Shown here: piece by piece, positions 31,650-52,409 of the stretch
Layout of the letters: each line of letters begins with the position of its first letter
Position numbering within the stretch: position 1 is the first letter of the stretch
From: Candidatus Sysuimicrobium tengchongense
GTDB lineage: Bacteria; Sysuimicrobiota; Sysuimicrobiia; Sysuimicrobiales; Sysuimicrobiaceae
DNA length: 64,000 nucleotides
Assembly: GCA_031460175.1 (NCBI GenBank)
Contig: JAVKGW010000001.1
Location: 83,021-147,020 of the forward strand
Direction of reading: 5' to 3'
Position numbers and translations under genes: made by a program
The notes under the pieces: model-generated
Told to the model about the DNA's origin: nothing
The model's input: only the letters and a program-made list of their open reading frames with translations
The model's database searches: none

Positions 31650-31966
31650 ATGTGCACCCCTTCGCGGCGCACATTCGCCAGGAAAGGCGAGGCATACGCT
31701 TCGTAATACCCCTCAGGGACAACGACCACAGAAATGAGTTCCCCCGTCTCAAGCAGAATATCGAAGAGCAGCGCATCCAGGGAACGCCGCACCTGCCAGG
31801 GGTCCAGGGAATCCTCAACGACCACCAGGAGATCCACATCCGAATCCTCGGTGGCCGTCCCCAGCGCATAAGATCCGTAAAGGATCACCGCTTTGATTCC
31901 GGAGCCGTACCTTCCTGCAAGGAAGTCCTTCACTCTGCGAACAATCGCGCGGACATCCTCAGCCAT
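31646..31966 (-). CDS. Minimal nucleotidyltransferase (MNT antitoxin)
   Basis: AVILYGSYALGTATEDSDVDLLVVV is the NTase GS...DxD motif. Overlaps the hsdM stop by 8 nt. Confidence 0.8.
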   Translation of the reverse strand: MAEDVRAIVRRVKDFLAGRYGSGIKAVILYGSYALGTATEDSDVDLLVVVEDSLDPWQVRRSLDALLFDILLETGELISVVVVPEGYYEAYASPFLANVRREGVHI

Positions 31967-33458
31967 TCTCGTCCTCCCGGTTGTTCCCGAGGATCTCGCT
32001 CAGTTCTTCCACAATGCTCAGGACCTCCCGCTCCTTCTCCAGTAGCCCCGCCACGATCTCCACCGGCGAGGGGAGGGCCTCCGTTTCCTTGCGGTTCGGA
32101 TTGCGGGCCGTGAGGTCGTAGCCCCGCTTTTTGATATCCTCCACCGGCACGATCCAGGAGCGCTCCGAGAGACAGGTCTCACGGGGACCCTGCCCCCTAC
32201 GGTAGGCATCCCATGCTTTCCAGAGGCGTCGCGCTTCTTCGAAGTGTTCGTCCTGAATAGGGCTTCCCTTGCTGAATTTCTTCAGCCCCTCGGGTAAGGG
32301 CAGTTCGTAATACCATATCTCCCGAGTGCGTCCCGGCCACTCAAAGAAAATGAGGGCGGTCTTTACATCTACAGGAGCAAACGTACCGGGCGGCAGGCTC
32401 ACGATGGTGTGCAGGTTGAACTCTTCCAAAAGCGCCTTCTTCACCTCGGCGAAAGCCCCGCCGCGAAAGAGGGTTCCCTCCGGCACCACCATCCCGCAGC
32501 GGGCGCCGTCCCGGGGCTTGAGCTTGCGCATGATGTGCTGGAGGAAGAGGAGTTCCGTGGCGGAGGACTTGATGGGAAAGTTGGCCTGGATGTGCCGGCC
32601 CTCAACACCGCCGAAGGGCGGATTGGTCATGATGACATCAAAGCGCTCGGTGACCTGGCGGATGTTCTCTTCCAGCGTATTCCGGCGGTAAATGCGGGGC
32701 GCGGCCACGCCGTGAAGGACCATGTTCATCAGCCCCAGAAGGGCCGGGATGGGCTTCTTCTCCTGACCATAGAACGTGCGCTCCTGGAGCATGCGGTGGT
32801 CCTCCAGGGTCCTCTCCTGTCGTTTCATCCAGAGATACGCTTCTACAAGGAAGCCACAGGTGCCGCAGGCGGGATCGTAAACGGTCTCGCCGATCTGAGG
32901 GTTCACCACCTCCACGATGAATCGTATTACAGGTCGTGGTGTATATACCTCGCCTGCAATACCGACTTCGTTTCCCGTTCGATAAAGTAGAGACTCGTAT
33001 ACCTCTGAAACTGTGAAGATATCGTCCTGGCTATGAAAGTCAATCCCGTTGATGATCGTGATGACATCCTTGAGATTGTAACCGGAAGCGCAGACGATGA
33101 CGTTGCGCTCGGCGAAGACGCTGCGGATGGTTTCTCGCAACGGATCACCGCCCAGGTTCTGGAGATAGGGGATAAGCTTCCCATGCACAAAGGCAAGCAG
33201 GTCATCTGCAGGCCAGTCCTTCAAAGCCCAGTCCCGCCAGCGGTAGGGAGGTTCAATGATAGGCCGGTAGGGGCGGCCGGCGAGGGTCGCCTGGGTCTCC
33301 CACTCCTCTTCTTGAGCGTCCAGAAAGCGCAGGAAGAGGAGCCAGGACAGGTGCTCCACATACTCCATGATGCCGCCGCAGTTGTTGTCACGACGGAGGA
33401 TGTCACAAGCTCGCCAGATTTCGTTAGCCAAGGTCTCTCGGGTTTGAGGACGGTTCAT
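31959..33458 (-). CDS. hsdM: Type I restriction-modification DNA methyltransferase subunit HsdM (N6-adenine)
   Basis: HsdM N-terminal domain plus MTase motifs: VYDPACGTCGFLV (motif I) and VIMTNPPFGG (motif IV, NPPF). Confidence 0.92.
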   Translation of the reverse strand: MNRPQTRETLANEIWRACDILRRDNNCGGIMEYVEHLSWLLFLRFLDAQEEEWETQATLAGRPYRPIIEPPYRWRDWALKDWPADDLLAFVHGKLIPYLQNLGGDPLRETIRSVFAERNVIVCASGYNLKDVITIINGIDFHSQDDIFTVSEVYESLLYRTGNEVGIAGEVYTPRPVIRFIVEVVNPQIGETVYDPACGTCGFLVEAYLWMKRQERTLEDHRMLQERTFYGQEKKPIPALLGLMNMVLHGVAAPRIYRRNTLEENIRQVTERFDVIMTNPPFGGVEGRHIQANFPIKSSATELLFLQHIMRKLKPRDGARCGMVVPEGTLFRGGAFAEVKKALLEEFNLHTIVSLPPGTFAPVDVKTALIFFEWPGRTREIWYYELPLPEGLKKFSKGSPIQDEHFEEARRLWKAWDAYRRGQGPRETCLSERSWIVPVEDIKKRGYDLTARNPNRKETEALPSPVEIVAGLLEKEREVLSIVEELSEILGNNREDENG

Positions 33459-36133
33459 GCCGCTACCTCCTCACGGAGATAGAGCCGTTCTCGGACACTT
33501 TTCAATGCTTGACCGAGTTGGGCAGGGCCGCCAAACCAATCCTTGATCTTCACCGCTCCGCCCCATTCCCGGAAAGGTGACACCCCAAAGATCTCGGGCT
33601 CCAGTTGTTCAATTCCACCCACCCGGTATTTATCGAGCAACTCCAGAATGACCCGGCGGGCTTCCTCCCGGTGCTTGAGCAGAAAAGCCTGTTCCCGATT
33701 CAGGAAGGCCTCCGCCCGCTGGCGGCGGGTGCGAATGGGAGCCCCGAAGGCCAGATGGGCGAGGAGGTCGTAGGTGTCGGCTTCGGGCTGTCCCTCGATC
33801 TCGGCCAGGAGTTCGGGATGAACGCTGGCGCGGCGCAGCTCCTCCATAAAACGCCTGCGCTTCTCCGAATCCACCCAGATCTCCCGTAATGTTTTCTGCG
33901 TGGGTGCCGCCTCGATGACCCGGCTCCGGATGTAATCTCGATACTCCCTCAGAGTCAACTGCTGGCCGGTGGCGTCGATCGTGAAGATGATCTCGTCCTG
34001 AATAGCCACCTCCAGCCCCTCTACGCGGATCTTTTGGGGCTTGCCCTTTTGCTGCTTAAGCGGCACCTCCACCCATTGGACCGCGTCCGCAACGGTGTCC
34101 ACGCGCAGCTCTTTCCGCACATAGCCGGGTGCACTGACGATGAGGGTCAGCGTTCCCTCCGGAAGGCTCCGGAATGCGAACCTTCCGTTCTCGTCGGTGC
34201 GGATAGGCCCCTGCTGGGTGTTGGGTCCGGTGCGGATGGAAACAGAGGCGCCGACGATAACATCTCCAGTCTCGGCATCGCAAACAACCCCATCCACGCC
34301 CGCCGTCAGAGGACCCGCCGGCGGTTCAGGTGGCGGAACGGGCGGCCGATCCCACTGGTCGAATAGTCGGGTGGCACCAGTATAGTCGATGATGCGGAAC
34401 CAGTATTTGTCCGTAGCGGGATCCAGACGGCTCCCACGCCCGATGATCTGCTTAAAGAGCACAGGGGAGGAGATGGTCTTCATAAAAACGATGTTCCGGC
34501 AAGGAGGAACGTCCACGCCGGTCGTAAGCAATTCGGCAGTGGTGGCCACCACAGGCGCTTTCTTATTGGAGTCGGCGAAATCCTCCAGCCAGCGGCGGGC
34601 TTCTTCTCCTTCTTCGGAGATGATGGGCACAGCGTAGTTGTCCAGTCCGGTCTCGGGACCCAATTCGTCCCGGAGCAATCGGGCCACCAGGCGGGCATGC
34701 TCCATATCCACGCAGAAGACCATAGTCTTTTCCATCGGCCCGAAGCGGCGGAGCAACCCCGCCAGGTGTCGCACCATCTCCCTTGTGCGGTCCGGCAGGG
34801 TGATCTCCCGCTCAAACTGGGGCGTGTGGTAAACGGGGCGGGGCTCCACGTCCTCAGGAATGAAGACCTCTGCGCCCTGCTCCATGGCATCCTCCAGCCT
34901 GAGCCCCTGAGCATCTACGCTGGTGCGCACCACGTGCACCTTATAGGTGGCCAGAAACCCGTCCTCAATGCCCTGGCCGAGGCTATATTGGTATGCCGGA
35001 GGCCGCCAGGTGCCCCGCTCGGGGTGTTCCGGGTCTATGGAGACTTCGGGTTCTTCGCTGCAGAAGTAGGCATAGGTGTCAATGTTCTCATCCTGCTTGG
35101 GGGTAGCGGTCATCCCCAGGTGGATGGCTGAGGAGAAGTGGTCCAGGATCTCCCGCCAGGTTCCCCAGCCCGAGCGATGGCACTCATCAATGATGACCAG
35201 ATCAAAGAAATCAGGTGGAAAGCACTCAAAGAGCCGCTTCCCTTCCTCGTTGGGGCTCCAGAGGGTTTGATAGATGCCAAAGTAAAGGTCCCGGTTCAGG
35301 TTGGGCGGATGGCCTTCAATGAGGAAGCGGGGCTCGCTGGTCCCGGTAGCGAAGGGCGAGAACGTGTTGTAGGCCTGGTCGCGCAGGACGATCCGATCGG
35401 CGAGGAAGAGCACTCGCGCCGGCCGTCCGGGATGGCGGTTCTCCAGCCACCGGGACTTCAAGAGTTTCCAGACGATCTGGAAGGCCACGAAGGTCTTCCC
35501 CGTGCCCGTGGCCATCGTGAGGAGGATCCGCCGCTGGCCCCGCATAATGCGGAGGATCACCTCCCGGATGGCCACTTCCTGGAAGTAATAAGGGCGCTTG
35601 CCGCAGAGGCTCTCGGGGCAATAAGGACACAATAGGGGGTTGGTTTGCCTCTCTGGAAGCCCGTATATACTGGGGGCCTCTTTGAGCTGGCCTGGAACCG
35701 GCTGGGTCAGGCCTGTGTTTACCTGCCACCGCTGCCACAGATCATCCGGCGATGGGAATCGATCCAAATCCCGGGTGGTGTGCGTGAAGAAGTCATACTC
35801 TACGATCCTGTGTCCATTGGTGGAATAAGCGAAAGCCAGCCCCAGGTCCCGAGCATAGCCCTTGGCCTGTTCCAGGCCGGCATCAGGCGGGCTGTCCTCG
35901 GGTTCAGCCTCCACCACGGCGATGGGGAAGCCATCGGTGTAGCGCAATAGGTAATCTACCCGCCTGGGCTTGCCTCGCCGGATGCGATCTCCAACTAAAA
36001 TAATTTTCCCGGGCGTGTATTGATGGTCTCGGTTGTAATAAAACTCCCTCCCAAGGTGTTGATCCGTCCAGCCTGCAGCCTTAAGTTTGAGCTCAACAAG
36101 CCTTGCCCGGGTTTCCGCTTCATTCATCCCCAT
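33455..36133 (-). CDS. hsdR: Type I restriction enzyme R subunit HsdR with an inserted carboxypeptidase-regulatory-like beta-sandwich domain
   Basis: MNEAETRARLVE N-terminal nuclease region. SF2 motifs LLTMATGTGKT, VIIDECHR and QIIGRGSR. EcoEI_R_C-like tail. Start moved to ATG 36133; the track's upstream extension is a repeat-encoded remnant (see findings). Confidence 0.9.
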   Translation of the reverse strand: MGMNEAETRARLVELKLKAAGWTDQHLGREFYYNRDHQYTPGKIILVGDRIRRGKPRRVDYLLRYTDGFPIAVVEAEPEDSPPDAGLEQAKGYARDLGLAFAYSTNGHRIVEYDFFTHTTRDLDRFPSPDDLWQRWQVNTGLTQPVPGQLKEAPSIYGLPERQTNPLLCPYCPESLCGKRPYYFQEVAIREVILRIMRGQRRILLTMATGTGKTFVAFQIVWKLLKSRWLENRHPGRPARVLFLADRIVLRDQAYNTFSPFATGTSEPRFLIEGHPPNLNRDLYFGIYQTLWSPNEEGKRLFECFPPDFFDLVIIDECHRSGWGTWREILDHFSSAIHLGMTATPKQDENIDTYAYFCSEEPEVSIDPEHPERGTWRPPAYQYSLGQGIEDGFLATYKVHVVRTSVDAQGLRLEDAMEQGAEVFIPEDVEPRPVYHTPQFEREITLPDRTREMVRHLAGLLRRFGPMEKTMVFCVDMEHARLVARLLRDELGPETGLDNYAVPIISEEGEEARRWLEDFADSNKKAPVVATTAELLTTGVDVPPCRNIVFMKTISSPVLFKQIIGRGSRLDPATDKYWFRIIDYTGATRLFDQWDRPPVPPPEPPAGPLTAGVDGVVCDAETGDVIVGASVSIRTGPNTQQGPIRTDENGRFAFRSLPEGTLTLIVSAPGYVRKELRVDTVADAVQWVEVPLKQQKGKPQKIRVEGLEVAIQDEIIFTIDATGQQLTLREYRDYIRSRVIEAAPTQKTLREIWVDSEKRRRFMEELRRASVHPELLAEIEGQPEADTYDLLAHLAFGAPIRTRRQRAEAFLNREQAFLLKHREEARRVILELLDKYRVGGIEQLEPEIFGVSPFREWGGAVKIKDWFGGPAQLGQALKSVRERLYLREEVAA

Positions 36134-36160
36134 CGGAGCTCCTCCCGAACGCCGTGGTCT

Positions 36161-36240
36161 TTGGATGGGTGCGCCGAGATCTGCCCGATGGGGGGGCTCG
36201 TCGGCCTCAATCAGGCGGTGCACGCCATCAGACATCCCTG
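36161..36240 (-). repeat. Roughly 75-nt diverged repeat encoding a DUF1156-like N-terminal peptide remnant, copy 1 (upstream of the hsdR start)
   Basis: Contains TGCGCCGAGATCTGCCCGATGGG...CTCGTCGG...TCAAT.AGGCGG. On the coding strand it translates as MSDGVHRLIEADEPPHRADLGAP. The second copy is at 38055-38130. Confidence 0.55.
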
Positions 36241-36280
36241 TTCCTCCCTGCCTAAATGTATCAGTCCCCAAATGCATCGT

Positions 36281-37961
36281 TCAAGAAGAGATGATTGCAT
36301 TTCCCCGTGAGATTGATGTATTTTGAATCGCTACATAGCAAGCACCTCGGCCTTTCCCCTGCTTCCTCAAAAAACCCATCTCCACAAGGTGCTGAAGAAG
36401 CCGAAAGGCCTGAATCCGTGAAACGCCGAAAACGCGCCGGACATCCTCATTTTTGACATAGCCTTTCTCATGTAGGATCGGCTCCAGGGCAAGGAGTTCC
36501 GGCGGCTTTTCCTGGGGCGCTTTCTCAGGTTCCGGGATGATCTCATACACTCGCCCTCGAGGCTGGTTGAGCCGCACGATTCTCCGGCGGAGGAGGTCCT
36601 TGATGTCACGACTGGCCGTGTAGGGGTCCACACCGACCAGTTTCTGATAAGCCCGGCTGGTGAACCGGCCTCCGTGCTCGTAGGCGTAAGCCAGAAGCCG
36701 CAGTTGATTGCGGGTGAGCCCCTGCCCTTCGTATCGCCGGAGCCAGTACATCGTCTCCGGTCGGTAGATCGGCGTGCTGTGGAGGGTGACGACAAAGCAG
36801 CCACCTTCCATGGCAAGCTCGGGTGGGCGTAGCCCCTCACGCTCCATCACCTCGAACATGCGTGGGATGCCCTCGCCACGCTCCCGCATGTAGCCCAGGT
36901 CCGTCAGCACCCGCACGATCCGCGGGTTCCGCGAGGCATGGACTTTTTCGCGACGGCGCAACCGTTCCAGGGTCACCGGCGGCACCGGCTCGCCAGGGCT
37001 ACGCACTTCCAGGCGGTCATCGAACAGATCCACTTCGATACCGATCCCTTCCAGAGCGTAATCCCGGTGCGCGATGGCGTTGACAATGGCTTCCTGCCAG
37101 GCGAAGGTGGGATAGACCAGGCGCTCTTCAAAGAAGAGGTCCACCAGGGTCTGCCGCTCAGGCAGATACGGCTGGATGGTCCTGTAGGCTTCCTCCACCA
37201 GCCGCACCAGCGGGATGCCTTCGATCCGAAGCCGCTTGCGGATGTTGAATTCCGGGCCGGTGCGTCGCTCGGTTCCCTGCCAGACGGCGAAATCAATCCC
37301 ACAGCGGGGATGCCAGCGAGAAGGATCTCGGCCGAAGAGCAACAGGGCAGCCCGGCGCAGGAAGAGACGCCCATTTCGCTTCTCGGCCAGATGGTAATGC
37401 AGGAGCGCTTCCTCGACCGACAGGTCCAGTCCTACGCGCTCGACGACTTCTTTCACCAGATCGGTGTTTATATCCGCCAGGGTGGCTTCGGGGACGATCT
37501 GATCTTCCCAGATCAGTTTACGACGTGCGTTCTTGATGGCTTCAATGTCCGTGGCGGGGAAGGGCAGGTTCTGGTCATTGTGACGGTAAAGGTAGCGTCC
37601 ATCGCTGAGCTGATGCACCTGCGGGCTCCAGTCGGTCTCGAAGACCCACACGCGCTTCCCTTCCAGGGTGATTTCATGAACACGAAAGCTCAGAGGGGGG
37701 GCGGATGAGGCTCCTGATCTGCGTCCTGACTTGCGCAAGGTTATAGCGCTCCGGAACGCCCGAAACAGTGCCGTCATCCTCAATACCGAGCACGACCGTG
37801 CCACCGTCGGCATTGGCCATAGCCGCCAGCGTTTCCGCCACATCCCGGATCACGTCTTTGACCGGTCGGGGACGGGGCACGTCGTCCCTCCGGTCATAGC
37901 AACTTTTGCGCTCCAAGAATTGCCCCTCGGATTGCTCTTTCACCCATGTCCAATCGGTCAT
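36281..37961 (-). pseudogene. AlbA_2 (Schlafen-like AAA_4) / HATPase_c_4 putative regulator, frameshifted at a C7 homopolymer
   Basis: N-terminal AlbA_2 domain is encoded in the frame of ORF 37674..37961 (...VVLGIEDDGTVSGV...). The rest is in the frame of ORF 36281..37843. Removing one C from the C7 run at 37695-37701 (coding strand) fuses them into ...IRSLIRPPLSFRVHEITLEG... Confidence 0.7.
37695..37701 (-). other. Homopolymeric C7 (G7 on plus strand) tract at the frameshift site
   Basis: Sequence ...cagagggggggcgg... read directly. Located exactly where the two reading frames of the AlbA_2/HATPase_c_4 gene switch. Confidence 0.8.
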
Positions 37962-38054
37962 GGTGCTTCCCCGAAAGTTGCCGCCGCGTGGGACGGGTCG
38001 ACGCCGGTATCGTTGCCTCGTGCATGACCAGAGGTGGGGGCGCCCTTGCGCACA

Positions 38055-38130
38055 TTCTGGCCCTTCCGGGCATGCGCCGAGATCTGCCCGATGGGCATCT
38101 CGTCGGTTTCAATGAGGCGGCGGATGGGGT
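38055..38130 (-). repeat. Roughly 75-nt diverged repeat encoding a DUF1156-like N-terminal peptide remnant, copy 2 (upstream of the AlbA_2 gene start)
   Basis: 23-nt exact match to copy 1. Translates as MPNPIRRLIETDEMPIGQISAHARKGQ (track ORF 37958..38173). Confidence 0.55.
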
Positions 38131-39335
38131 TAGGCATCCGTTTCTCCCTCCATATATGCAGATGCATTTTCAATGCGCCACAACAGGTAATTTATCACAA
38201 TCAATTGATGAAGAACCTCATACGGGTCCAAACGCACCAGTTCATGGTTCTCCGGCAAATGCCCCTTCGGATTCCTGAAGGCTTTAAAAACCCCTTCACA
38301 AATCAAAGCCAGTCCGGCTTGTTCATTTTTACCTGATTCCTTATCAAGATGAGCGTTAAAGCGAATCCTCAATTTCGCAGGCTCTCCTATTTGTTTCATT
38401 GTTGCCTGAACTAATTCGGCCTCATTTTTGTCCCATATACCGGAACGCTTTTGAATCTCTTCGTTGAGGACCTTGGTTGCCTCAAACACAGCTCCCACGA
38501 ATTTCCCAGCACGGAAGTAGCCTTCTGCCGCTTGCTTGACTCGTCTGTGAAGGGGAAAGTAATCAAAGAGTAGTTGTGGATCCGGATGCTCAGTCTCCCT
38601 TACGATTGCCTCATATAGAAGAGCTTTTTCAGTAGGAGATAACACGCGTTGTGATAGTAGTACTCCTTCATCAAAAACAATCCGTTCTTGAACACTACCA
38701 AAACGTTCCCAATCTTCTCGCTTGTTCCCTCCATAACGCTCGGCCCACCACACTCGCGCAATAATGTCCGCTTCGTCCTGCGGCTCGCCTTGTGGGCGGG
38801 AAACATCATCCCCCAGCTCTCTCAGAGCCGCAGCATAGAGAATCCGCCTATACAAAGGGCCACGCCCCATTTCCCTTTTAGAAATCTCCTTAGTTTTCAA
38901 TATCGCCTGGAGACATTCCCCTCCACGGTCGCTGCCCATTGCCTGGAAACCCAACGATAGGAGAAACACCTGCTCCGGATCACGCAGAGGCGACCATCTG
39001 TCGTCCGCGCCGAGTTGCTGCACCTTGTCACTCAACCGTGCGAACCACTCAGGTTCAAGTTCAAGGGAGCGGCCTGCTTTTCGGTTTAACCAGAAAGCCG
39101 CTGCTATTGGTCCTACATTCCGGTGCACATCCCAGACCTGTTCTTCTTCTACCCATTTTCGTATTTTCAAAACAAGCTCCTCAAAAGGTTGGTTATTCTC
39201 GGTCCCCTCAACGCTCAATGCATAGCCCAACCAGGCCGCCGCGAATGGATCCCAGCGGTCTTTCAGAACCTCCAGCTCCCTCAACAGGGCCTGACGCAGC
39301 TCACGTCTGTAGTGGTAAAAATCTACAGGAACCAT
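38130..39335 (-). CDS. Ymh-family (TIGR02391 / Hypoth_Ymh) HEPN-superfamily protein with an about 250-aa N-terminal extension. Candidate effector.
   Basis: C-terminal ...FVGAVFEATKVLNEEIQKRSG...GLALICEGVFKAFRNPKGH... matches the Ymh domain with an intact R-x4-H motif (RNPKGH). AT-rich codon usage. Start overlaps the 3' end of the pAgo gene by 13 nt. Confidence 0.65.
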   Translation of the reverse strand: MVPVDFYHYRRELRQALLRELEVLKDRWDPFAAAWLGYALSVEGTENNQPFEELVLKIRKWVEEEQVWDVHRNVGPIAAAFWLNRKAGRSLELEPEWFARLSDKVQQLGADDRWSPLRDPEQVFLLSLGFQAMGSDRGGECLQAILKTKEISKREMGRGPLYRRILYAAALRELGDDVSRPQGEPQDEADIIARVWWAERYGGNKREDWERFGSVQERIVFDEGVLLSQRVLSPTEKALLYEAIVRETEHPDPQLLFDYFPLHRRVKQAAEGYFRAGKFVGAVFEATKVLNEEIQKRSGIWDKNEAELVQATMKQIGEPAKLRIRFNAHLDKESGKNEQAGLALICEGVFKAFRNPKGHLPENHELVRLDPYEVLHQLIVINYLLWRIENASAYMEGETDA

Positions 39336-40612
39336 GCCTTATCCCTCAATTTGCCCGCACTGGCTATGGGACTCCAATTGTCCGCCCCGATTTCAGACAC
39401 GAGCCGAGCTACCAGATACGAATAGTTCAGTGTAGCTGGCTTGAGTTGGGCGTTGAATCCCCTCCAGTTAACTCGGGCGAAGGCAAAAACTTGCTGAACC
39501 AGGCGGGGGAACTCATTTGACGACATTGTGGATCGTGCGTCCATGTAGATTTCCAATACATTTGGCACACCCCGCTTTCTGCGCAGTTCCTGACCTGTTC
39601 GATCAGGTACGCGGCCGTCCAAGAACAGTAGCGCCGTGTAACGATTGACCTCAACCCTAATGCCGGGCTTAGGAACATAGGTCGGGTGTGCTGTGTCAAA
39701 CAACCGGTAATTAGTATCATCGTTTAAGTGCAGAATGGCATATGGTATATCAGTGCCGATTCTCTGAAGCGCTTGTTCTACAGCCGCGATCTCCCTAAAC
39801 TTACCCGGACGTTTGCAAAGATGAATTATAATTGAAGAAGGTTTCCCTTGTCGCCGCTCGTACTCCTTGTAAGCCTCAACAACTAAATCGGCAAGCGCAT
39901 TCCTATACTCGTCCAGTTTTTCCCATGCCACCGGTTTGGGCGCAAGCGAATACAGAAATTGGTAATCCCCGTCCTGCATGAAAAGCGTTATAAACCCCAC
40001 AACGTAATTCCTTTGTCGATCCATCGCTCGGCTTACCCCGATAACAAGCTCTTTTTGTTGTGAAGGAGACATAACCGTCCACGGTGTGCCGCCAATCTTG
40101 GCATATATCTGCAGGGCTATATTTTCAAGGGTCCACGGAAGCCCTCTCGTATTTCTAAGTACCTCCGCCGTAACAACCTGGCTTGGAATTCCATTGCCTA
40201 AAAGAAGCGATTTGACCTCAGCATATAGGGTCAGATTTTTCGTTGGCATAATGACAAGAACCAAATCAGGATTATCGTTGACCAGAACAGTCGTTATCGT
40301 TTCCCTCGGAGCTTCAATGTCAAGCGGTCTCTCAGCGACGAATTCAAGAGGAATGCGGAATAGACTCTGGAACCCTGCAAACGCCCCATTGCCGTTAGTA
40401 AGACCTGACACCAAGATATTGTGCTCATCCAAGAGTTCCCTGGGGTACACCAAAACGCAACGAACCCTATCCAGGCCAAGATGTTGTGCATCATACGGGC
40501 CATACCGCCTCAGCCCTTGCCTTGCGTCTTCATGTTGCGCCGACCACGATGAAAGACTAAAACGCAAGGGGGGCAATGTAAATTGTTCTCCTGTTAGATA
40601 GAAATCGTTCAT
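39323..40612 (-). CDS. Short prokaryotic Argonaute (MID-PIWI), predicted catalytically inactive
   Basis: MID motif LVIMPTKNLTLYAEVK...GIPSQVV...QIYAKIGGTPW gives the Y/K/Q/K 5'-end-binding residues. PIWI blocks VIGVSRAMD (Ser replaces the first catalytic Asp), SIIIHLCKRPGKF (RDG-like strand) and PYAILHLNDDTNYRLF. 429 aa. ATGA overlap with the upstream partner gene. Confidence 0.68.
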   Translation of the reverse strand: MNDFYLTGEQFTLPPLRFSLSSWSAQHEDARQGLRRYGPYDAQHLGLDRVRCVLVYPRELLDEHNILVSGLTNGNGAFAGFQSLFRIPLEFVAERPLDIEAPRETITTVLVNDNPDLVLVIMPTKNLTLYAEVKSLLLGNGIPSQVVTAEVLRNTRGLPWTLENIALQIYAKIGGTPWTVMSPSQQKELVIGVSRAMDRQRNYVVGFITLFMQDGDYQFLYSLAPKPVAWEKLDEYRNALADLVVEAYKEYERRQGKPSSIIIHLCKRPGKFREIAAVEQALQRIGTDIPYAILHLNDDTNYRLFDTAHPTYVPKPGIRVEVNRYTALLFLDGRVPDRTGQELRRKRGVPNVLEIYMDARSTMSSNEFPRLVQQVFAFARVNWRGFNAQLKPATLNYSYLVARLVSEIGADNWSPIASAGKLRDKAWFL

Positions 40613-41346
40613 GGAACCACCCCCAGGATAACGCGCAACGGTGTTTCCTCCAAACTTGCCTTTATGCTTTCAGCAAGAGGCAATGAGAACTCTTTGTTTG
40701 CCTGCACAAAAGGTAGAATGTGATTGTGCAGTCTAAGCCGAGAGACTTCCGGATTTATCCGATTATCTGGGAGAAATTCGTCTTGAATTTGTGCAATTTC
40801 TGCCATTGCATTATATCGTTGAATTTCACGAGTATCGAGGCATTGTCCGTGTTCGTTTTGTATTTCCCAGCAGATGTCCACAATCAAGCCCAAAATGGGA
40901 AGATTTCCTTGCCATATATAGATAGTTCTCAAATCGTAACCACGGAAGATTTTCAATCGCCCTGCGACAGCAGTGCGGTAAGGCTTCGGCTCATAAAGCG
41001 TGGTGCGACCTTTCCCGCGCCGTTTGCGATACCCTTGAGTTTTCAGATGGTTGCTAATGCCTTCATTGATCAGGCGAACGCACCATTGAGGATGTTCCAG
41101 CAGCCGAACCTGTTGCTGTTGAAAGCCCTTGGAAGCGAGTCGTTTCATATCTCGGCCATATCCGAAAATCTGATCTCGATATCGATAAACATGAATAGTC
41201 CATCCCAACTGCTCAATCTCAGTGCGCAATTCTTGTAATGAGGCGAAGTTTTTTGATGGTGCTAGCATCAAGCTAACGCGCTCATCTGGCAAGTTCACTC
41301 TGAAGACATTTACATAGAGCCCTGGCTCCAGCAAGATCGTGTTCAT
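40609..41346 (-). CDS. Putative pAgo partner protein (APAZ/N-domain-like; no recognisable SIR2/TIR/nuclease effector domain)
   Basis: 245-aa ORF, AT-rich, with an AGGAGG RBS. It sits immediately upstream of, and is translationally coupled to, the short pAgo, which is the position the APAZ-containing partner takes in short-pAgo operons. Fold assignment is inferential. Confidence 0.4.
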   Translation of the reverse strand: MNTILLEPGLYVNVFRVNLPDERVSLMLAPSKNFASLQELRTEIEQLGWTIHVYRYRDQIFGYGRDMKRLASKGFQQQQVRLLEHPQWCVRLINEGISNHLKTQGYRKRRGKGRTTLYEPKPYRTAVAGRLKIFRGYDLRTIYIWQGNLPILGLIVDICWEIQNEHGQCLDTREIQRYNAMAEIAQIQDEFLPDNRINPEVSRLRLHNHILPFVQANKEFSLPLAESIKASLEETPLRVILGVVP

Positions 41347-41405: not shown

Positions 41406-44400
41406 TCATTCTATTCTTTTCAGCTTCTCTAGATCGATCTGGTAATGCTCAATCCTCACGATGGGCTCCCAATTCAGGCGGACGGGGTCCTGGACGGCGA
41501 TGAGGCGCGGGCGGGTGGCGCAGTCGAAGACCACGTAGAGCCAGTAGTCCGCCCTCAGCCGTTCGGCCGTTTTGTATTCGTTGGGCGTGAGGGCCACCGG
41601 CCCCACGCCGGCCCGGCCCTTGACCTCGATGAAGCGGACGTGGCCGCTTTCCGGGTGCCGGGACAGGATGTCAAAACCGCGATCCTCGGCGGAGACGTCC
41701 TCGGGCTCCCAGCCCCGCTCCCGCTCATAGCGCATGGCTTCCTCCATCGCAATGCGCTCGATTTCCTCGTCCCGCACCATGGGCGCGAACTCTTCGCGCT
41801 CGGGATGGGGCAGGACCAGGGCCGAGCCGATATGGGTGAGGTCGGCGATGGCCAGCTCCCGCTCCCGCCGGAGCTCCTCCCGCCGCCGCTCCAGCCGCGC
41901 GTTCAGCTCCTCCAGCCGCCGCTCCGCCTCGCTCAAGGCCAGCGTCACGTCCTCCCCATGCTGCTGCCGCTCCAGAAGCTCGGCGATCTGCCGCTGCTGC
42001 CGGTCGATGAGGGTGAGCAGGCTCACCTCCACGTGGCGGGCGATGGTCTCCAGCTCCTTCTGTCGCTCCTGCTGGACCTTCCCCAGGAAAGACTGAAGCC
42101 CGCTCTCCAGCAGGAAGCGCTCCACTTCGTTCCGGTCGACCGGGAAGATGGGCGGCGGATCCGCCGTTCCCGGCATTACCGGAATGAGGTCCAGAAAGAG
42201 CGTCGGCTGACGCAGGCGCATCTCCCCCGAAGGCCCCACCTCCACTACGAAGAGCTGGCGGTGCAGGATGTTGCCCCGTCCGTCTGCGACGGAGGCCGCA
42301 TACACCTCCAGCCGGGCCGGCGCCGTCCGATGCAGGTCATAGAACACGGCGCCCCGTCTCAGGTCTGTCTGCGCCTTCTCCCACACCTCCTCCCGAACGG
42401 CCTCGAAGAGCGGATGCCCGGGGGTCACCCACTCCAGCGTGGGGTCCTCGGTCAGGCGCTGTTTGTTGAAGGTGATCCGCCGGTACTCCCGCCCCAGGGG
42501 ACCGAAGCGGGGCTCCAGACGCTCCCCTACGAGCTGCAGGTGGCGGGGGATGCGCCCTACGGTGTAAACGCCGTTGCGGCCCTTCGGCGTGGGAAGGCCG
42601 GCGATGGGAGCCGCCTGCAGGAAGAAGGTCTCCACCACCTCCGGCACCAGCCGCCGCTCCTTGGCCTCGGCCGTCCGTCCCAGGATCGCCGACAGGTTCA
42701 GCTCTCTCTTGGCCAGCCCTTCCAGCGTGGACTGGCAGATGCGAGCGAAGCGTTCCCGGTCCAGGTCCTGGACGAGGCGCTCGAGGGCCGCCTGCGGAGT
42801 GAGGCGCCCGGCGTAGAGGTCCCGGAACAGCCGCTCCAAGTAGTTGGCCGGGATGACCTCGCCGACCACGTCGAAGACCTGGTCGCTGCCCAGCTCCCGA
42901 CGGATCTCCCGAAGCCGCTCCAGGAGGCGCTCCAGGACCTGCCCCTCCCGGGTGTTGGCGGCCACGAAGTTGAAGATCAGGCAGTCCCGCTCCTGGCCGT
43001 AGCGGTGGATGCGCCCCATGCGTTGCTCCAGTCGCATGGGGTTCCAGGGGATGTCGTAGTTGATCATCAGCCAGCAGAACTGGAGGTTGATACCTTCCCC
43101 GGCGGCCTCCGTGGCCACCATGATCTGGGCCTCTTCCCGGAACTCCCGCTCGGCGTAGAGCCGGGTGCCCGGCGTGTCCCGGTCGCCGATCTTCATGCCG
43201 CCGTGGATCTGGGTAACCCGGAAGCCCCACCGGCGGAGGGTGACCACCAGGTAGTCCAGGGTTTCCTTGAACTCCGTGAAGATGAGGAGCTTGGTGCGGG
43301 GGTCCTCAAAGAGCCCCTGTTCGGTGAGCACCTGGCGCAGCTTGGCCAGCTTGGAGGAAACTTCCCGCTCCTCCAGAGCCCGGGCCTGCTGCACCAGCGC
43401 CCGCAGGGCCTGGCTTTCCTGTCGGATCTCCCAGGATTCGGAGGGGAGAGAGGCCTCTTCCACCTCCTCCTCGACCCGGATCGCTTCCTCCTCAGGCAGC
43501 TCATCCAGATCCTCCAGACGGGAGAGGTCCACGGCGACCTCTGGCCGGGGGCGGCGCAGGCGGTCTTCCAGCTTCTCCAGGCGCCGCTCCAGGCTCCGGC
43601 GGACGGCGTGGAGGCTGGAGGCGAAGCGCCGCTGATACATGGCCATGGTGAACCCGAGGGCCCGCCCACGGGCGGAAGGGTCGGCGGCGGCGCGGATGGA
43701 CTGCTCCTGCACATAGCGGGTCAGGGCCTCGTAGAAGGCGAACTCCGGGCCGTCCAGCTCGAAGCGGACGGTGCGTACCTCCCGGTTCGTGAACAGCCGG
43801 CGGACCTTCCCCGTTTCGGGGTCGGGGAAGGTGATGAGCGCCTCTTTGGTCCGGCGGAGATAGAACGGCGCGTGGTTGCGCCGGATGGCCTCCTCCAGGC
43901 TGCGGACGTCTGCGTATACATCCCTATCCAGAAGCTGGAGGAAGAGGCAGAAGTTCACCGGATCGCCCTTATGGGGCGTACCGGTGAGGAGAAGGAAATG
44001 ATGCGTCCGCTGGGAGAGCAGCTCGCCGAGCTTATAGCGCTCCGTCTTATGCTCCGGGTCGCTGGCGCTCATCCGGTGGGCTTCGTCGACGATGACCAGG
44101 TCCCAGGTGGTGCGCTGGAGGCTCCCGAGCACGTCCTCGCGCTTGGCGAAGTCAACGGAGGTGATGACCTGGGGCCTGTCCTGCCAGGGGTTGACCCCGT
44201 AGGCATATTTCAGGTCCACGCCGCGGACGATATCAAACCGCTCCCGGAAGCGGTCGCGCAGCTCCCGCTGCCACTGGAACATCAGGTTGGCAGGCGTGAC
44301 GATCAGGGTGCGGGAGACCAGCCCGCGCAGCTTGAGCTCCTTGAGGAGCAGGCCGGCCATGATGGTCTTTCCGGCGCCGGCATCGTCGGCCAGCAGGAAG

Positions 44401-44759
44401 CGAATGCGGGGCAGCGGCAGGATGTAGTGATAGACCGCCTCCAGCTGATGAGGCAGCGGGTCCACGCGGGCGATGGAGAGGGAAAAATACGGGTCGTAGT
44501 CGTAGGCCAGCCCCAGGCGGGCCGCTTCCACCCCCAGTCGGAAGCGGTGGGCGTCGCCGTCGAACGGCGCTTCGGCAGGGATGATCCGCAGCCGACCGAC
44601 CTGCTCCGGGGTCAGGAGACGCTCGTGGTATTGCCGGGTGCGAAGCCCCTGCCCGCCCACCCGGAGATTCGGGCCGAAGGGCTGCACGAGCAGAATCCGG
44701 ATAGGTTCTGGGAAAACTTCCCCTTCCACGATGGCGCCGGATTGAAGATCGTTTTCCAT
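41406..44759 (-). CDS. SNF2-family helicase with C-terminal DUF3883 (restriction-endonuclease-like) domain
   Basis: SNF2 motifs LADDAGAGKT, DLVIVDEAHR, LLLTGTPHKG and QRMGRIHRYGQ. C-terminal ...RFIEVKGR...YWLYVVFD is DUF3883-like. 1117 aa. 57-nt gap to the partner gene. Confidence 0.85.
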   Translation of the reverse strand: MENDLQSGAIVEGEVFPEPIRILLVQPFGPNLRVGGQGLRTRQYHERLLTPEQVGRLRIIPAEAPFDGDAHRFRLGVEAARLGLAYDYDPYFSLSIARVDPLPHQLEAVYHYILPLPRIRFLLADDAGAGKTIMAGLLLKELKLRGLVSRTLIVTPANLMFQWQRELRDRFRERFDIVRGVDLKYAYGVNPWQDRPQVITSVDFAKREDVLGSLQRTTWDLVIVDEAHRMSASDPEHKTERYKLGELLSQRTHHFLLLTGTPHKGDPVNFCLFLQLLDRDVYADVRSLEEAIRRNHAPFYLRRTKEALITFPDPETGKVRRLFTNREVRTVRFELDGPEFAFYEALTRYVQEQSIRAAADPSARGRALGFTMAMYQRRFASSLHAVRRSLERRLEKLEDRLRRPRPEVAVDLSRLEDLDELPEEEAIRVEEEVEEASLPSESWEIRQESQALRALVQQARALEEREVSSKLAKLRQVLTEQGLFEDPRTKLLIFTEFKETLDYLVVTLRRWGFRVTQIHGGMKIGDRDTPGTRLYAEREFREEAQIMVATEAAGEGINLQFCWLMINYDIPWNPMRLEQRMGRIHRYGQERDCLIFNFVAANTREGQVLERLLERLREIRRELGSDQVFDVVGEVIPANYLERLFRDLYAGRLTPQAALERLVQDLDRERFARICQSTLEGLAKRELNLSAILGRTAEAKERRLVPEVVETFFLQAAPIAGLPTPKGRNGVYTVGRIPRHLQLVGERLEPRFGPLGREYRRITFNKQRLTEDPTLEWVTPGHPLFEAVREEVWEKAQTDLRRGAVFYDLHRTAPARLEVYAASVADGRGNILHRQLFVVEVGPSGEMRLRQPTLFLDLIPVMPGTADPPPIFPVDRNEVERFLLESGLQSFLGKVQQERQKELETIARHVEVSLLTLIDRQQRQIAELLERQQHGEDVTLALSEAERRLEELNARLERRREELRRERELAIADLTHIGSALVLPHPEREEFAPMVRDEEIERIAMEEAMRYERERGWEPEDVSAEDRGFDILSRHPESGHVRFIEVKGRAGVGPVALTPNEYKTAERLRADYWLYVVFDCATRPRLIAVQDPVRLNWEPIVRIEHYQIDLEKLKRIE

Positions 44760-45416: not shown

Positions 45417-45527
45417 GCCTCGCCTCCTGCTGGCGCCCCAAACCCTCCGCAGGTGCCGCGGACTCACGACCCCGTAGGGGTACTCAGGTGGTGCCGGGAA
45501 GGTATACCCGCTTCCTGCGCGGTTCTC

Positions 45528-45575
45528 CGCTGGTGCCTGGGGAGGGAGTCGAACCCCCGACACGGGGATTTTCAG
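45528..45575. repeat. attL-type direct repeat: 48-nt exact copy of the 3' part of tRNA-Phe
   Basis: CGCTGGTGCCTGGGGAGGGAGTCGAACCCCCGACACGGGGATTTTCAG is identical to 52331-52378 (the tRNA-Phe 3' half, from CCA end to anticodon stem). Confidence 0.85.
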
Positions 45576-45858
45576 CCCTACCAGAGACGTTGCACACCGT
45601 CCCCTTGTATCTCATACGCTACATTAACGCGCACCAAGATGTATACCACATCTCGCGGAGTTGCACGAATGATCATCCAATGGCTGCACGTTTGGCTGCA
45701 CGCCTCCAGGGTGGTCCGCCCCGTGGTCCCGCCTGTGCGCGCAGGTGTAGGTGCGCGTGTGCGGCCCTGCGGCGCGTGAAAAAGACCGCGCCCCGGGGTC
45801 GCGCGCGCACCCTCCTGATTTGCCGAGATAAAAAGAACCGCCGCGGGTTACTCTAAAG

Positions 45859-46581
45859 GTGATGGACGGGAGCGTGACCACCGGGCAGATCGCGTGGCAT
45901 CTAGGCGTCAGCCGCAGGACCGCACTGAAGTGGGTCAAGATGCTTGCCGGGTTGTTTCCGGATCTCGTGACTGTGGATCGCGGGGCCTACAGGTTGAAAG
46001 AGGACCCGGGGATTGCACTGCTGTGTGCCCTGCGGGACCACCCCCGGGAGTGTGCGTCCGCGCTCCGTGCTGCTCGGCTCGTGGGGCTGACCCCGACACC
46101 ACATGACCTGATCCTCGCGGCCGTGTGGGGACACTACCTGCATGGCCTATACCACCGCCTCCGCGCAACCTATCCGGGGCGCCCCGTCACGTGCCGGGTC
46201 CTCGACCTGCACGCACGTCGCGAGTACATCGTCCACCTCGGAGCCAGCCGCCCACCCCGAAGGCCCCCGACGAGGGCTCTCATCGAGAAGTTGACGCAGA
46301 TGTGCACCCGCTGGTCCCACAGAACCCGCCCCTACCACCGACTCGCAGGAATCTATGCGATCGCGGAGCGCCTTGAGATGGGCAAGTTGAAGCGCGCCAG
46401 GGTCTTGTTTGGGTGGAAGTTCACCCAGCGGGGCAGCCGGTGGTCCAAAAGGGAGAGGTGGTTGTACCGCCACGGGCTGCTCCCCCCGAACTTCCGCTCC
46501 CATCCCCACTCTCCATCTCCCGGCCACCCGCTGTGGGGGAGCAGAAAGAGACGGGATTACTTCGGGGCGCGCCGAACTTAA
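45859..46581 (+). CDS. HTH-containing putative regulator / replication-associated protein of the element
   Basis: N-terminal TTGQIAWHLGVSRRTALKWV has an HTH-like pattern. First gene inside attL. Confidence 0.45.
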   Translation: MMDGSVTTGQIAWHLGVSRRTALKWVKMLAGLFPDLVTVDRGAYRLKEDPGIALLCALRDHPRECASALRAARLVGLTPTPHDLILAAVWGHYLHGLYHRLRATYPGRPVTCRVLDLHARREYIVHLGASRPPRRPPTRALIEKLTQMCTRWSHRTRPYHRLAGIYAIAERLEMGKLKRARVLFGWKFTQRGSRWSKRERWLYRHGLLPPNFRSHPHSPSPGHPLWGSRKRRDYFGARRT

Positions 46582-47108
46582 GAACCTCTCCCCTTGCTAT
46601 CCAACAAGACCCCCCGGAATTTCTCATGCAACGCATGCGGCATGCAGGGGCACAGGTTCCCGCGGAAGGCAGCCACCTTTCCTTCCCTCTTCCCCAGGAC
46701 AACCCCGATCCAGGGGCGCGGGTTGTGGGGGTCCAGACGTAGTTGGACTGCGCACAGGGGGGATGGGCACGCCAGAAAGTACCACGAAGCGCCTTTCCAC
46801 TGTCCGGGGATGAACAGGCGCGGCTGAGCCTCAACAAGATCTGACAGGACCCGGCCGATCTCCATGGGCAACGGGTACCACTCCCGCGGGACCTCCGCCG
46901 GGGCACCGACGATCACCTCACGCTCTCCGAGGCAACTACCGCCGAGTTCCCACGGTTCAAACACCGGCTCGAGGGTCAGCACCGGGACCGTGATGTTGAT
47001 GAACCTGGGGGGCGGAGGGGTGAGGGCCTTCTCACTGCCGGACGCCCCTGCTGCCCTGCGTCGCCGTGGTTGCACCCGGAGAGAAGCGACAATGATGCGT
47101 TTGTTCAC
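46578..47108 (-). CDS. Hypothetical protein (element-encoded)
   Basis: 176-aa ORF convergent with the preceding gene. No family assigned. Confidence 0.3.
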   Translation of the reverse strand: MNKRIIVASLRVQPRRRRAAGASGSEKALTPPPPRFINITVPVLTLEPVFEPWELGGSCLGEREVIVGAPAEVPREWYPLPMEIGRVLSDLVEAQPRLFIPGQWKGASWYFLACPSPLCAVQLRLDPHNPRPWIGVVLGKREGKVAAFRGNLCPCMPHALHEKFRGVLLDSKGRGS

Positions 47109-47208
47109 ATTTGAAGGTTAACACGGGTGCCCGGACCCGCAACGGAGCCTGCCCCTCCTTGCCTACGATGTGGCCCCCACGAGACGCTGTGGAACGGAGG
47201 TGAGCAAA

Positions 47209-47424
47209 ATGCGAGAGCAGCCCCGGCCGGTGGAGCTGTTGACTGTCGAGCAGCTTGCGTCTGCCCTACGGATCAGCAAGGCGACCGCGTACCGTCTGAT
47301 CGCGCGGGGCTTGGTGCGCGGTGTGCGCCTCAGCCCGCGGTGCCTGCGGATCCCGGCGTCCGAGGTTTTGAGGTTGATCCGGGAGGCCACGGGCGGTCTC
47401 GAGGGGGATGACGGGGATGATTGA
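47209..47424 (+). CDS. Excisionase-family DNA-binding protein (Xis/MerR-like HTH)
   Basis: LLTVEQLASALRISKATAYRLIARGLVRGVRL. Start trimmed to ATG 47209. Its stop overlaps the prim-pol start. Confidence 0.6.
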   Translation: MREQPRPVELLTVEQLASALRISKATAYRLIARGLVRGVRLSPRCLRIPASEVLRLIREATGGLEGDDGDD

Positions 47425-50197: not shown

Positions 50198-50550
50198 CGA
50201 GCGTGGGGTGGTGGAGGTGGGAGGAGGCGAATGGCCACCTAATCGCGGTGCTTGTGCCCTTGGCGCGCGTGGTCGTGCTCAGGGATGGCGGCCCGGAGAC
50301 CGTGGGGTACGTGCCACTGGCCTACCTGTCCCGGCTTCGAGAACGCACTCCTGGTATCGCCCTGAACTGCGGATGCTGGGCTTCCGTGTGTCCGGATTGC
50401 GAGAGGGTCATCGCGACATACGTCCTCCACGGGTGCGCACACGGCGATTTATGGGGTCGCCACGCGGAGGTTGCGGTCCAGGGCTCGGATTGGTGGAGGG
50501 TGGCGGAGCGTCGCCTGCTGAAGGTGAACCCGGGGACGAGGAGGCGATGA
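50194..50550 (+). CDS. Hypothetical Cys-rich protein (element-encoded)
   Basis: 118-aa ORF overlapping the prim-pol stop. CGCW...CPDC motifs. Confidence 0.35.
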   Translation: MTSVGWWRWEEANGHLIAVLVPLARVVVLRDGGPETVGYVPLAYLSRLRERTPGIALNCGCWASVCPDCERVIATYVLHGCAHGDLWGRHAEVAVQGSDWWRVAERRLLKVNPGTRRR

Positions 50551-50737
50551 TGGTCCGGGTCCCCGGGGCCGCGCCGAGGAGAGATAATCTCCAGGTCGGG
50601 CTGAAACCCGCGCCACAGCGGCCTCCTGGAGGGGTTGCAGCCATTGTGCAGCCAACGGAGAGGGGGGGCTGATGGTGGGGTCCGGGGCACGAGCCTAACG
50701 CTGCGCGTTAACGGTCCCCTCGGTGCCCGCGGCTGGC

Positions 50738-51967: not shown

Positions 51968-52043
51968 AGTACGCCACAGTGCGTCACGAAGTCAATAGTT
52001 GCGACAATGCCCACCTGGGCACTACCATTGGGGTGTGGACCGG

Positions 52044-52226
52044 ATGCTGACCGTGCGCGAGGTAGCCCGCAGGCTCCGGGTGACCGAGGAGTCGGTCCGC
52101 CGGTGGTTGCGCGGCGGCCTGCTCCGGGGCGTGCCCCTCCGGGGCCGGGCGGGCTGGCGGATCCCGGAAGCAGAATTGCTCAGGTTCATTGAGGAGCGGG
52201 CTAGGGGCAGGCAGCCTGCCGGGTAG
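52044..52226 (+). CDS. Excisionase-family HTH protein (second Xis-like paralog)
   Basis: MLTVREVARRLRVTEESVRRWLRGGLLRGVPLRG. Start trimmed to ATG 52044. Lies between int and the att site. Confidence 0.55.
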   Translation: MLTVREVARRLRVTEESVRRWLRGGLLRGVPLRGRAGWRIPEAELLRFIEERARGRQPAG

Positions 52227-52333
52227 GGGTGCCACCCCGCAATTGGCTGCATATTGGCTGCACAGCCCAACCTTGCCCCTTCCTGCATCACCTCCCGCGC
52301 GGGCTGAAACCCCTGTGCTGCCTGGGTTCCCGC

Positions 52334-52409
52334 TGGTGCCTGGGGAGGGAGTCGAACCCCCGACACGGGGATTTTCAGTCCCCTGCTCTACCACCTGAGC
52401 TACCCAGGC
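52334..52409 (-). tRNA. tRNA-Phe (anticodon GAA)
   Basis: Reverse complement GCCTGGGTAGCTCAGGTGGTAGAGCAGGGGACTGAAAATCCCCGTGTCGGGGGTTCGACTCCCTCCCCAGGCACCA. Anticodon loop CUGAAAA, encoded CCA. Its 3' half is the att core. Confidence 0.92.

Follow-up and report, generated by a model that had tools for sequence, protein, structure and literature searches.

What role is left to a PIWI protein that shows no residues for slicing and keeps the pocket that holds the 5' end of a guide? The question is raised by a gene on the minus strand (39323-40612) of a 64,000-nucleotide stretch of Candidatus Sysuimicrobium tengchongense (assembly GCA_031460175.1, contig JAVKGW010000001.1, positions 83,021 to 147,020), referred to below as the window and to which all coordinates belong. 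A previous interpretation, made from the letters and their translations and named here the sequence-only reading, had regarded its product as a guide-dependent sensor prokaryotic Argonaute (pAgo) which, like those of the SPARTA and SPARSA systems, activates a partner toxin rather than slicing the target. Our analysis places the gene in an intact three-gene cassette of 3.2 kb (38130-41346, minus strand), which encodes an Argonaute N-terminal subunit (Ago-N), the MID-PIWI subunit and a HEPN effector. The MID-PIWI protein is interpreted as a subunit of a split (pseudo-short, AfAgo-like) long-B pAgo, in a three-gene operon with an adaptor-HEPN effector, and the probability of this whole explanation, including its mechanism, is put at about 0.7. 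The identity and architecture of the cassette are held with high confidence, and the mechanism by which the sensor would act on a HEPN toxin is considered rather probable.

The region 39323-40612 contains one open reading frame (ORF), from an ATG start to a TAG stop, which encodes 429 amino acids (aa). Its product matches the Pfam family Piwi (E-value [E] 1.5e-18), and among the PADLOC pAgo profiles it scores best with PDLC02436 (460 positions; E 7e-74) and next best with the C-terminal halves of class II pAgo profiles of 617-724 positions (E 1e-54 and 7e-49). The motifs LYAEVK, IPSQ and YAKIGG start at aa 129, 142 and 170, and the RNase H motifs GVS and HLCKRPGKF at aa 192 and 264. The predicted MID 5'-phosphate pocket (40097-40225, minus strand) includes Y130 (codon 40223-40225), K134 (40211-40213), Q145 (40178-40180) and K172 (40097-40099), and the C-terminal L429 (39326-39328) belongs to the same pocket. 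These five residues align to Y123, K127, Q137, K163 and L427 of AfAgo, both in the phmmer alignment against the Protein Data Bank (PDB) and in an independent MAFFT alignment, and the first four align to R418, K422, Q433 and K457 of TtAgo. These TtAgo residues and their AfAgo equivalents are the published 5'-phosphate ligands, and in AfAgo the metal of the pocket is held by the terminal carboxylate. The MID-PIWI C-terminus reads WFL, as in AfAgo and RsAgo. In a family alignment of 29 homologues with 55-76% identity, the four pocket residues and the terminal Leu are identical in all members (29/29). The conservation of the Y, K, Q and K residues noticed in the sequence-only reading extends to all 29 homologues, and MID-PIWI contains a YKQK-type MID pocket predicted to receive a 5'-phosphate.

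The positions equivalent to the DEDX tetrad (39407-40033, minus strand) were mapped twice against D478, E512, D546 and D660 of TtAgo: with hhalign, using the family profile against TtAgo (probability 93.6), and with MAFFT L-INS-i, using TtAgo, AfAgo and RsAgo. The TtAgo query is 100% identical over 685 aa to the gene product of Thermus thermophilus HB27 pTT27 (NC_005838.1). Both methods give the same mapping for D478, D546 and D660. D478 corresponds to S194 (codon 40031-40033), a position with S in 28 of the 29 family members, G in one and G186 in AfAgo; D546 corresponds to P269 (39806-39808; P in 29/29, P258 in AfAgo), and D660 to A402 (39407-39409; A in 29/29, A398 in AfAgo). The glutamate finger, E512 in TtAgo, falls in a variable loop which is shorter in MID-PIWI; E231 (39920-39922), located in this loop, aligns to the finger glutamate of RsAgo, and only nine of the 29 members show a glutamate there. 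In the AlphaFold2 (AF2) model of MID-PIWI (pLDDT 83.8, pTM 0.84), S194 lies inside strand 188-198, P269 right after strand 260-265 and A402 inside helix 393-408, which in the model is the placement expected for an RNase H topology. An alternative acidic tetrad was considered among the acidic residues that are invariant in the family (D198, D214, D216, E274, D306, D332, D358 and D424) and was discarded: all of them are at non-catalytic TtAgo positions (for example, D214 equals D497 and E274 equals E553). The GVS at the first-Asp position and the HLCKRPGKF at the RDG strand, both pointed out previously, are present and hold S194 and P269. With S, P and A at three metal-ligand positions in 28-29 of the 29 members, no complete DEDX elsewhere in the alignments against TtAgo and no catalytic tetrad on the predicted structure, the earlier claim of a catalytically dead PIWI is borne out.

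The assignment to an Argonaute clade is based on the ranking of phmmer matches in the PDB, PADLOC profiles and Foldseek matches. With MID-PIWI as the query, the best phmmer match is AfAgo (AF1318; E 6e-28, query 31-429 against AfAgo 30-427), followed by RsAgo (E 2e-22), EcAgo (E 5e-21), animal Piwi (E 5e-9), AaAgo (E 1e-7), SiAgo (E 6e-6), SPARDA Ago (E 2e-4) and SPARSA Ago (E 3e-3). The PADLOC pAgo_II profiles reach 1e-54, against 2e-18 for pAgo_I. Foldseek, with the MID-PIWI model, ranks RsAgo (E 8e-26) and the AfAgo of the fAfAgo complex (8ok9_A, TM-score [TM] 0.81/0.81) at the top, and the SPARSA, SPARDA and SPARTA Agos lower, with TM 0.70-0.74. As judged from its sequence, MID-PIWI is a long-B-type protein in MID-PIWI-only format, whose nearest relatives are AfAgo, RsAgo and EcAgo, and not the SPARTA/SPARSA Agos. 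For proteins of this format, Manakova et al. (2024, PMC10954474) use the names truncated, pseudo-short and split long-B pAgos. The proposal of a sensor pAgo for a partner toxin thus stands in part: its core, a dead slicer with an intact pocket that would act as the sensor for a partner toxin, has support from the sequence, the predicted structures and the gene context, whereas SPARTA and SPARSA are not the appropriate comparison family, since the long-B E-values are far stronger and the toxin candidate is a separate HEPN gene. That MID-PIWI is one half of a split Argonaute had been overlooked.

The gene upstream of MID-PIWI (40609-41346, minus strand) encodes Ago-N, a protein of 245 aa. Its TGA stop overlaps the MID-PIWI ATG (ATGA), and its own ATG is preceded by AGGAGG. 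Ago-N matched no Pfam family, and a plain phmmer search against solved structures found no match. Two PADLOC profiles for long pAgos, PDLC02395 (E 6.5e-7) and PDLC02379 (E 1.7e-4), nevertheless match it over their positions 3-148, and a profile of 23 Ago-N orthologues shows AfAgo-N (8ok9_C) as the best PDB match, collinear and with a marginal E of 0.004. The AF2 model of Ago-N, built from a protein-database alignment, has a pLDDT of 91.5, and its best Foldseek match is also AfAgo-N (8pvv_C, TM 0.70/0.74, E 5.6e-9), followed by the N half of RsAgo and then by the APAZ domains of SPARTA and SPARSA; SiAga1 reaches a TM of 0.45. Because the match to AfAgo-N, which has no PAZ domain, spans the whole 245-aa model, Ago-N is also devoid of PAZ. 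On the strength of the model, the product of 40609-41346 is the predicted N-L1-L2 half of a split long-B pAgo, and the annotation of MDR7415281.1, a "hypothetical protein", could be changed to Argonaute N-L1-L2 subunit.

The gene downstream of MID-PIWI (38130-39335, minus strand), whose start overlaps the MID-PIWI stop by 13 nucleotides (nt), encodes the effector, a protein of 401 aa with the NCBI product name TIGR02391 family protein. Residues 1-393 match the PADLOC profile Aga_HEPN (class II) with an E of 1e-150. The C-terminal region (38130-38552) shows a HEPN domain of the Hypoth_Ymh/TIGR02391 family (PF09509, aa 262-387; E 1.2e-18, 67.5 bits against a cutoff of 25), which contains the R-x4-H signature of HEPN as R354-N-P-K-G-H359 (38259-38276, minus strand). 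R354, P356 and H359 are invariant across 28 cluster representatives with identity down to 26%, and the signature is kept by every full-length genome copy of the effector; this invariance argues for a working RNase site, as predicted from the sequence. The N-terminal domain (aa 1-255; 38571-39335), recognised with PADLOC Aga_HEPN and hhalign, is a candidate pAgo-docking adaptor, by analogy with EcbAgaN (PMC13535254) and following Manakova et al. (2024). Only 56 cluster representatives among 1.84 billion proteins match this domain in a phmmer search, almost all of 380-409 aa, and therefore the family is small. The domain alone is common to a 477-aa non-HEPN protein (hhalign probability 85, E 5.7e-6) located 3' of a 34%-identical PIWI gene in locus L024, and this one match, together with the literature, suggests that the adaptor may be modular. 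The presence of the adaptor on other toxin domains was also considered and set aside, as all 27 full-length representatives aligned carry the HEPN motif. Searches of the effector against the PDB, with the single sequence and with the family profile, found no meaningful match, and sequence searches did not establish a similarity to EcbAgaN or SiAga2.

The ATGA and 13-nt overlaps, and the presence of only one Shine-Dalgarno sequence, point to co-translation of the three genes. A scan of the cassette for sigma-70-like promoters and terminators gave counts not above shuffle expectation. MID-PIWI has 277 database homologues, and 37 related loci came up when one genome per species was scanned; 23 of these loci show the order Ago-N, MID-PIWI and HEPN effector, in bacteria and archaea and with PIWI identity from 72% down to 40%. 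Archaeal carriers include Ca. Methanodesulfokora, Hadarchaeum, Archaeoglobaceae, Woesearchaeota and Bathyarchaeia, bacterial carriers include Chloroflexota, Verrucomicrobiota and Armatimonadota, and many of the named hosts are thermophiles. The gene trio is inherited and transferred as a unit. In the window, its products are MDR7415279-MDR7415281, from a metagenome-assembled genome (MAG) placed in Armatimonadota, and identical proteins are found in three or four independent MAG assemblies. The cassette has a GC content of 48.7% and a GC content at third codon positions (GC3) of 0.46-0.50, against a GC3 of 0.87 in the neighbouring helicase gene and a GC content of about 70% in the window flanks, and this contrast marks the cassette as horizontally acquired.

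Cassettes of other genomes are located directly 3' of different defence genes on the same strand: HsdS in five loci (L011, L012, L013, L017 and L027), PglX/MmeI-like methylases in another five (L003, L004 and L006-L008), one of them with a kinase domain, DUF499 in L019 and a NOV_C helicase in L002. The cassette appears to nest inside other defence operons. No fourth gene is conserved, as the flanking ORFs of the 23 cassettes are assorted restriction-modification, BREX-like and Hma-like genes that differ by locus. The SNF2/NOV_C helicase adjacent to the cassette in the window was likewise rejected as a component, given its GC3 (0.87 versus 0.46-0.50) and its clear recurrence in L002 only, and the flanking defence genes are read as island context and not as parts of the system. 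The scan also found distant split MID-PIWI genes with 24-30% identity (L025-L034); the gene after them encodes a protein of 353-371 aa assigned by PADLOC to Aga_SIR2 class II. In most of these loci the PIWI gene is preceded by an ORF of 305-324 aa, and the N-terminal portion of a pAgo_II profile matches one of these ORFs. Such loci would represent the long-B SIR2 (BPAS-like) system in a split form.

Among the known systems, fAfAgo of Archaeoglobus fulgidus (AF1318, AfAgo-N and Af1317; PMC10954474; PDB 8ok9 and 8pvv) is likewise a split long-B pAgo. In both, a low-GC, horizontally acquired cassette with overlapping genes encodes an upstream N-L1-L2 protein of about 250 aa without PAZ and a MID-PIWI protein of about 427 aa, and the effector gene follows directly. 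The two MID-PIWI proteins share the YKQK pocket, the WFL end, and the P and A that stand in place of D546 and D660 of TtAgo. They differ in that the MID-PIWI is only 21% identical to AfAgo in the Foldseek structural alignment, the similarity of the Ago-N proteins is seen by profile or structure only, Af1317 is a membrane protein similar to SiAga2 whereas the effector described here ends in a HEPN RNase domain, and the host is an archaeon in one case and a bacterium (Armatimonadota) in the other. EcBPAN and the BPAN, BPAS and BPAM systems (PMC10620215, PMC13535254) share a dead long-B PIWI and a separate effector with an N-terminal and a catalytic domain. However, EcAgo consists of one 731-aa chain whose tetrad positions read G, E, Q and D, and the Ago described here is split; the EcBPAN effector is an octameric PD-(D/E)XK DNase and ours a HEPN protein whose predicted substrate is RNA, and no sequence similarity is detectable between the two effector N-terminal domains. 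In the SiAgo, SiAga1 and SiAga2 system of Sulfolobus islandicus (PMC11788926; PDB 8znj), the MID-PIWI, the N-L1-L2-like partner and the effector are also all separate, but the effector is a membrane protein and the similarity is weak (SiAgo E 6e-6, SiAga1 TM 0.45). SPARTA, SPARSA and SPARDA show a dead PIWI with a conserved MID pocket, and target binding by the guide-loaded complex activates their toxic partner through oligomerisation; nevertheless, their effector (TIR, SIR2 or DREN) is fused to APAZ and their Agos belong to other clades. Finally, Agap-HEPN is a HEPN RNase co-encoded with AmAgo/PgAgo-like long-A pAgos (PMC11162769), but these are active nucleases with 5'-OH RNA guides made by the HEPN protein, unlike the dead pAgo with a 5'-phosphate pocket described here.

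From these comparisons the following mechanism is proposed. Ago-N and MID-PIWI would form a heterodimer without PAZ resembling a long Argonaute, as suggested by their overlapping genes and by fAfAgo, a heterodimer that uses guide RNA to bind target DNA (PMC10954474). The YKQK pocket and the C-terminal carboxylate may anchor the 5'-phosphate of a small guide, probably a transcriptome-derived RNA, and the guide-loaded complex would pair with complementary invader DNA; RsAgo, EcAgo and fAfAgo are reported to load small 5'-phosphate RNAs and to bind complementary DNA (PMC10620215, PMC10954474, PMC13535254). With S, P and A at its catalytic positions, the complex would leave the target unsliced. 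The target-bound complex would recruit the effector through its N-terminal domain, or would change its own oligomeric state. EcAgo recruits the nuclease EcbAgaN via the N-terminal alpha-helical domain of the nuclease (PMC13535254), and SiAgo binds its effector stably only when guide and target are loaded (PMC11788926). A beta-relay conformational switch, of the type detected in fAfAgo (bioRxiv 10.1101/2025.04.08.647717), may take part in the engagement of the effector. The HEPN domains, once brought together, would form a composite active R-x4-H RNase site, and non-specific RNA cleavage might arrest or kill the infected cell by abortive infection. For split long-B pAgos, HEPN is among the downstream effectors listed (PMC10954474). 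Abortive infection is the mode of action of long-B systems (PMC10620215), and in EcBPAN the RNA-guided recognition of DNA recruits and activates the effector and leads to the same end (PMC13535254).

Several points weigh against this interpretation. No experiment on any member of the HEPN subfamily was found in the literature searched, the chemistry of guide and target is extrapolated from AfAgo, RsAgo and EcAgo, and no solved structure, that of EcBPAN included, is matched in sequence by the N-terminal domain of the effector, so that the homology of this domain to the EcbAgaN adaptor is taken from a statement by Manakova et al. (2024) and the hhalign match to the L024 protein. In addition, HEPN domains are not only indiscriminate toxins, as they can have specific substrates (tRNA) or process guides. 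The effector might be a guide-biogenesis RNase that cuts transcripts into small RNAs to be loaded on the pAgo, and the pAgo might interfere by binding alone or via host nucleases. A co-encoded HEPN RNase that makes pAgo guides is documented experimentally for Agap-HEPN and AmAgo (PMC11162769), and RsAgo is reported to act without a co-encoded nuclease, as quoted in that paper. Nonetheless, Agap serves catalytically active long-A pAgos with 5'-OH guides, PADLOC places the protein of the cassette among the class II pAgo-associated effectors, related loci have SIR2 in the equivalent slot, and transmembrane, TIR or PD-(D/E)XK toxin-type domains have been reported there (Manakova et al., 2024). Moreover, as the pAgo is dead, a HEPN protein that only made guides would give a system with no output. 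Cleavage by HEPN proteins typically leaves 5'-OH ends, whereas the predicted MID pocket is of the canonical YKQK 5'-phosphate type. On balance, a role in guide biogenesis is considered unlikely.

The remaining alternatives concern the pAgo and the cassette as a whole. The size and MID-PIWI-only architecture of the protein, its Foldseek TM of 0.70-0.74 to the SPARSA, SPARDA and SPARTA Agos, and the resemblance of the Ago-N model to APAZ domains (TM about 0.55) would also fit a genuine short pAgo system, of SPARTA, SPARSA or SPARDA type, with an APAZ-effector fusion as the toxin. But the E-values of the long-B matches (6e-28 to 5e-21) contrast with those of SPARDA and SPARSA (2e-4 to 3e-3), the 245-aa Ago-N shows no TIR, SIR2 or nuclease domain by Pfam, PADLOC or the AF2 model, its closest structure is AfAgo-N and not APAZ, and the effector is encoded by its own downstream gene, all of which makes a short pAgo improbable. 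That the cassette is a decaying or silent passenger of the island, with no current function, is less credible: its composition is foreign (GC 49% versus 70%), the adjacent AlbA_2/HATPase gene looks frameshifted and no promoter or terminator stands out above shuffle expectation, yet the three ORFs are intact, full length relative to their homologues and keep all the functional residues, and identical proteins recur in the independent MAG assemblies cited above. Least credible is a PIWI that still cleaves nucleic acid via a non-canonical set of residues. The alignment of E231 with the RsAgo glutamate finger and the family-invariant acidic residues could be put forward in its favour, but three of the four metal-ligand positions read S, P or A in nearly every member, AfAgo carries the same P and A, its PIWI has been described as inactive (PMC10954474), EcAgo leaves its DNA target uncut (PMC13535254), and the invariant acidic residues fall, as described above, at positions that are non-catalytic in TtAgo. 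The preferred reading remains the split long-B pAgo with an adaptor-HEPN effector.

The cassette belongs to a defence island that extends from about 20000 to 45500 of the window, with a GC content of 0.51-0.67 against 0.70-0.72 in the flanks. This island contains a DUF499 gene (23371-26742) whose product bears a HEPN_Swt1 domain at its N-terminus, a type I restriction-modification system (HsdS, 30002-31261; HsdM, 31959-33458; HsdR, 33455-36277), the SNF2/NOV_C helicase gene (41406-44759; PADLOC HmaA match, E 5e-190), and genes encoding an NTP_transf_2 protein and a DUF3800 protein. A DUF1156-type methylase, which an Hma-like set would need to be complete, was not seen in the island. The HsdS gene shows an internal direct repeat of 300 nt (30091-31020, 75% identical, spaced 630 nt), which is the usual duplication of the two target-recognition domains of type I specificity subunits. 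Between HsdR and the effector gene, an ORF of 95 aa (37674-37961, minus strand) encodes the N-terminal segment of a Schlafen AlbA_2 domain and is overlapped in another frame by an ORF of 520 aa (36281-37843, minus strand) with HATPase_c_4 and two winged-helix domains; the pair (36281-37961) probably represents a single AlbA_2-GHKL gene with a frameshift, unless the assembly is in error here. For the 520-aa ORF there is also a PADLOC match (E 3e-15), to the N-terminal portion of a pAgo profile with 1121 positions. Just 3' of the HEPN stop, the peptide RRLIETDEMPIGQIS (37958-38173, minus strand) resembles HRLIEADEPPHRADL (36130-36277, minus strand), which sits in a 5' extension of the HsdR ORF. 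Neither region shows a Pfam match and no DNA repeat was detected between them; they may be remnants of a disrupted gene or recombination joints. Next to the island, a direct repeat of 73 nt (45506-45578 and 52309-52381, 86% identical, with an exact core of 31 nt), whose second copy is the 3' part of a tRNA-Phe gene, flanks genes encoding an AAA_25 protein of 929 aa (47408-50197, plus strand) and a tyrosine integrase (50738-51967, minus strand). This region (45506-52409) looks like an integrated element of about 6.8 kb at tRNA-Phe, abutting the defence island.

No Argonaute clade has been studied less than the long-B pAgos. Their effectors tested in the literature found are a DNase, a SIR2 and a membrane protein (Song et al., 2023, PMC10620215), and among these papers a structural mechanism is available only for the DNase system (Liu et al., 2026, PMC13535254). 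The architecture with a HEPN effector is already present in a gene-context figure (6B) of Manakova et al. (2024, PMC10954474), in whose supplement no searchable HEPN accession was found, and the HEPN variant is already modelled in PADLOC-DB v2 (2023). The window adds an intact and compact example of 3.2 kb, and the survey adds 23 orthologous cassettes and candidate key residues of the pocket (Y130 and K134) and of the HEPN site (R354 and H359). The interest is modest, and the value lies in the HEPN output and in the annotation of the Argonaute N-terminal subunit. That a split, RNA-guided, DNA-sensing Argonaute switches on a HEPN RNase via a private adaptor, with collateral RNA degradation as the output, is given slightly better than an even chance. 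Such an output was not found for any experimentally studied pAgo system in the literature searched and, if true, the cassette would in function be an Argonaute counterpart of the HEPN outputs of Cas13 and Csm6. As the family comes largely from thermophiles, it might find use as a reporter, a heat-stable RNase triggered by DNA. If instead the HEPN protein makes guides, the view of how dead pAgos get their guides would change; if the coupling is true, RNA degradation would join the immune outputs of pAgos, giving a DNA-triggered RNase.

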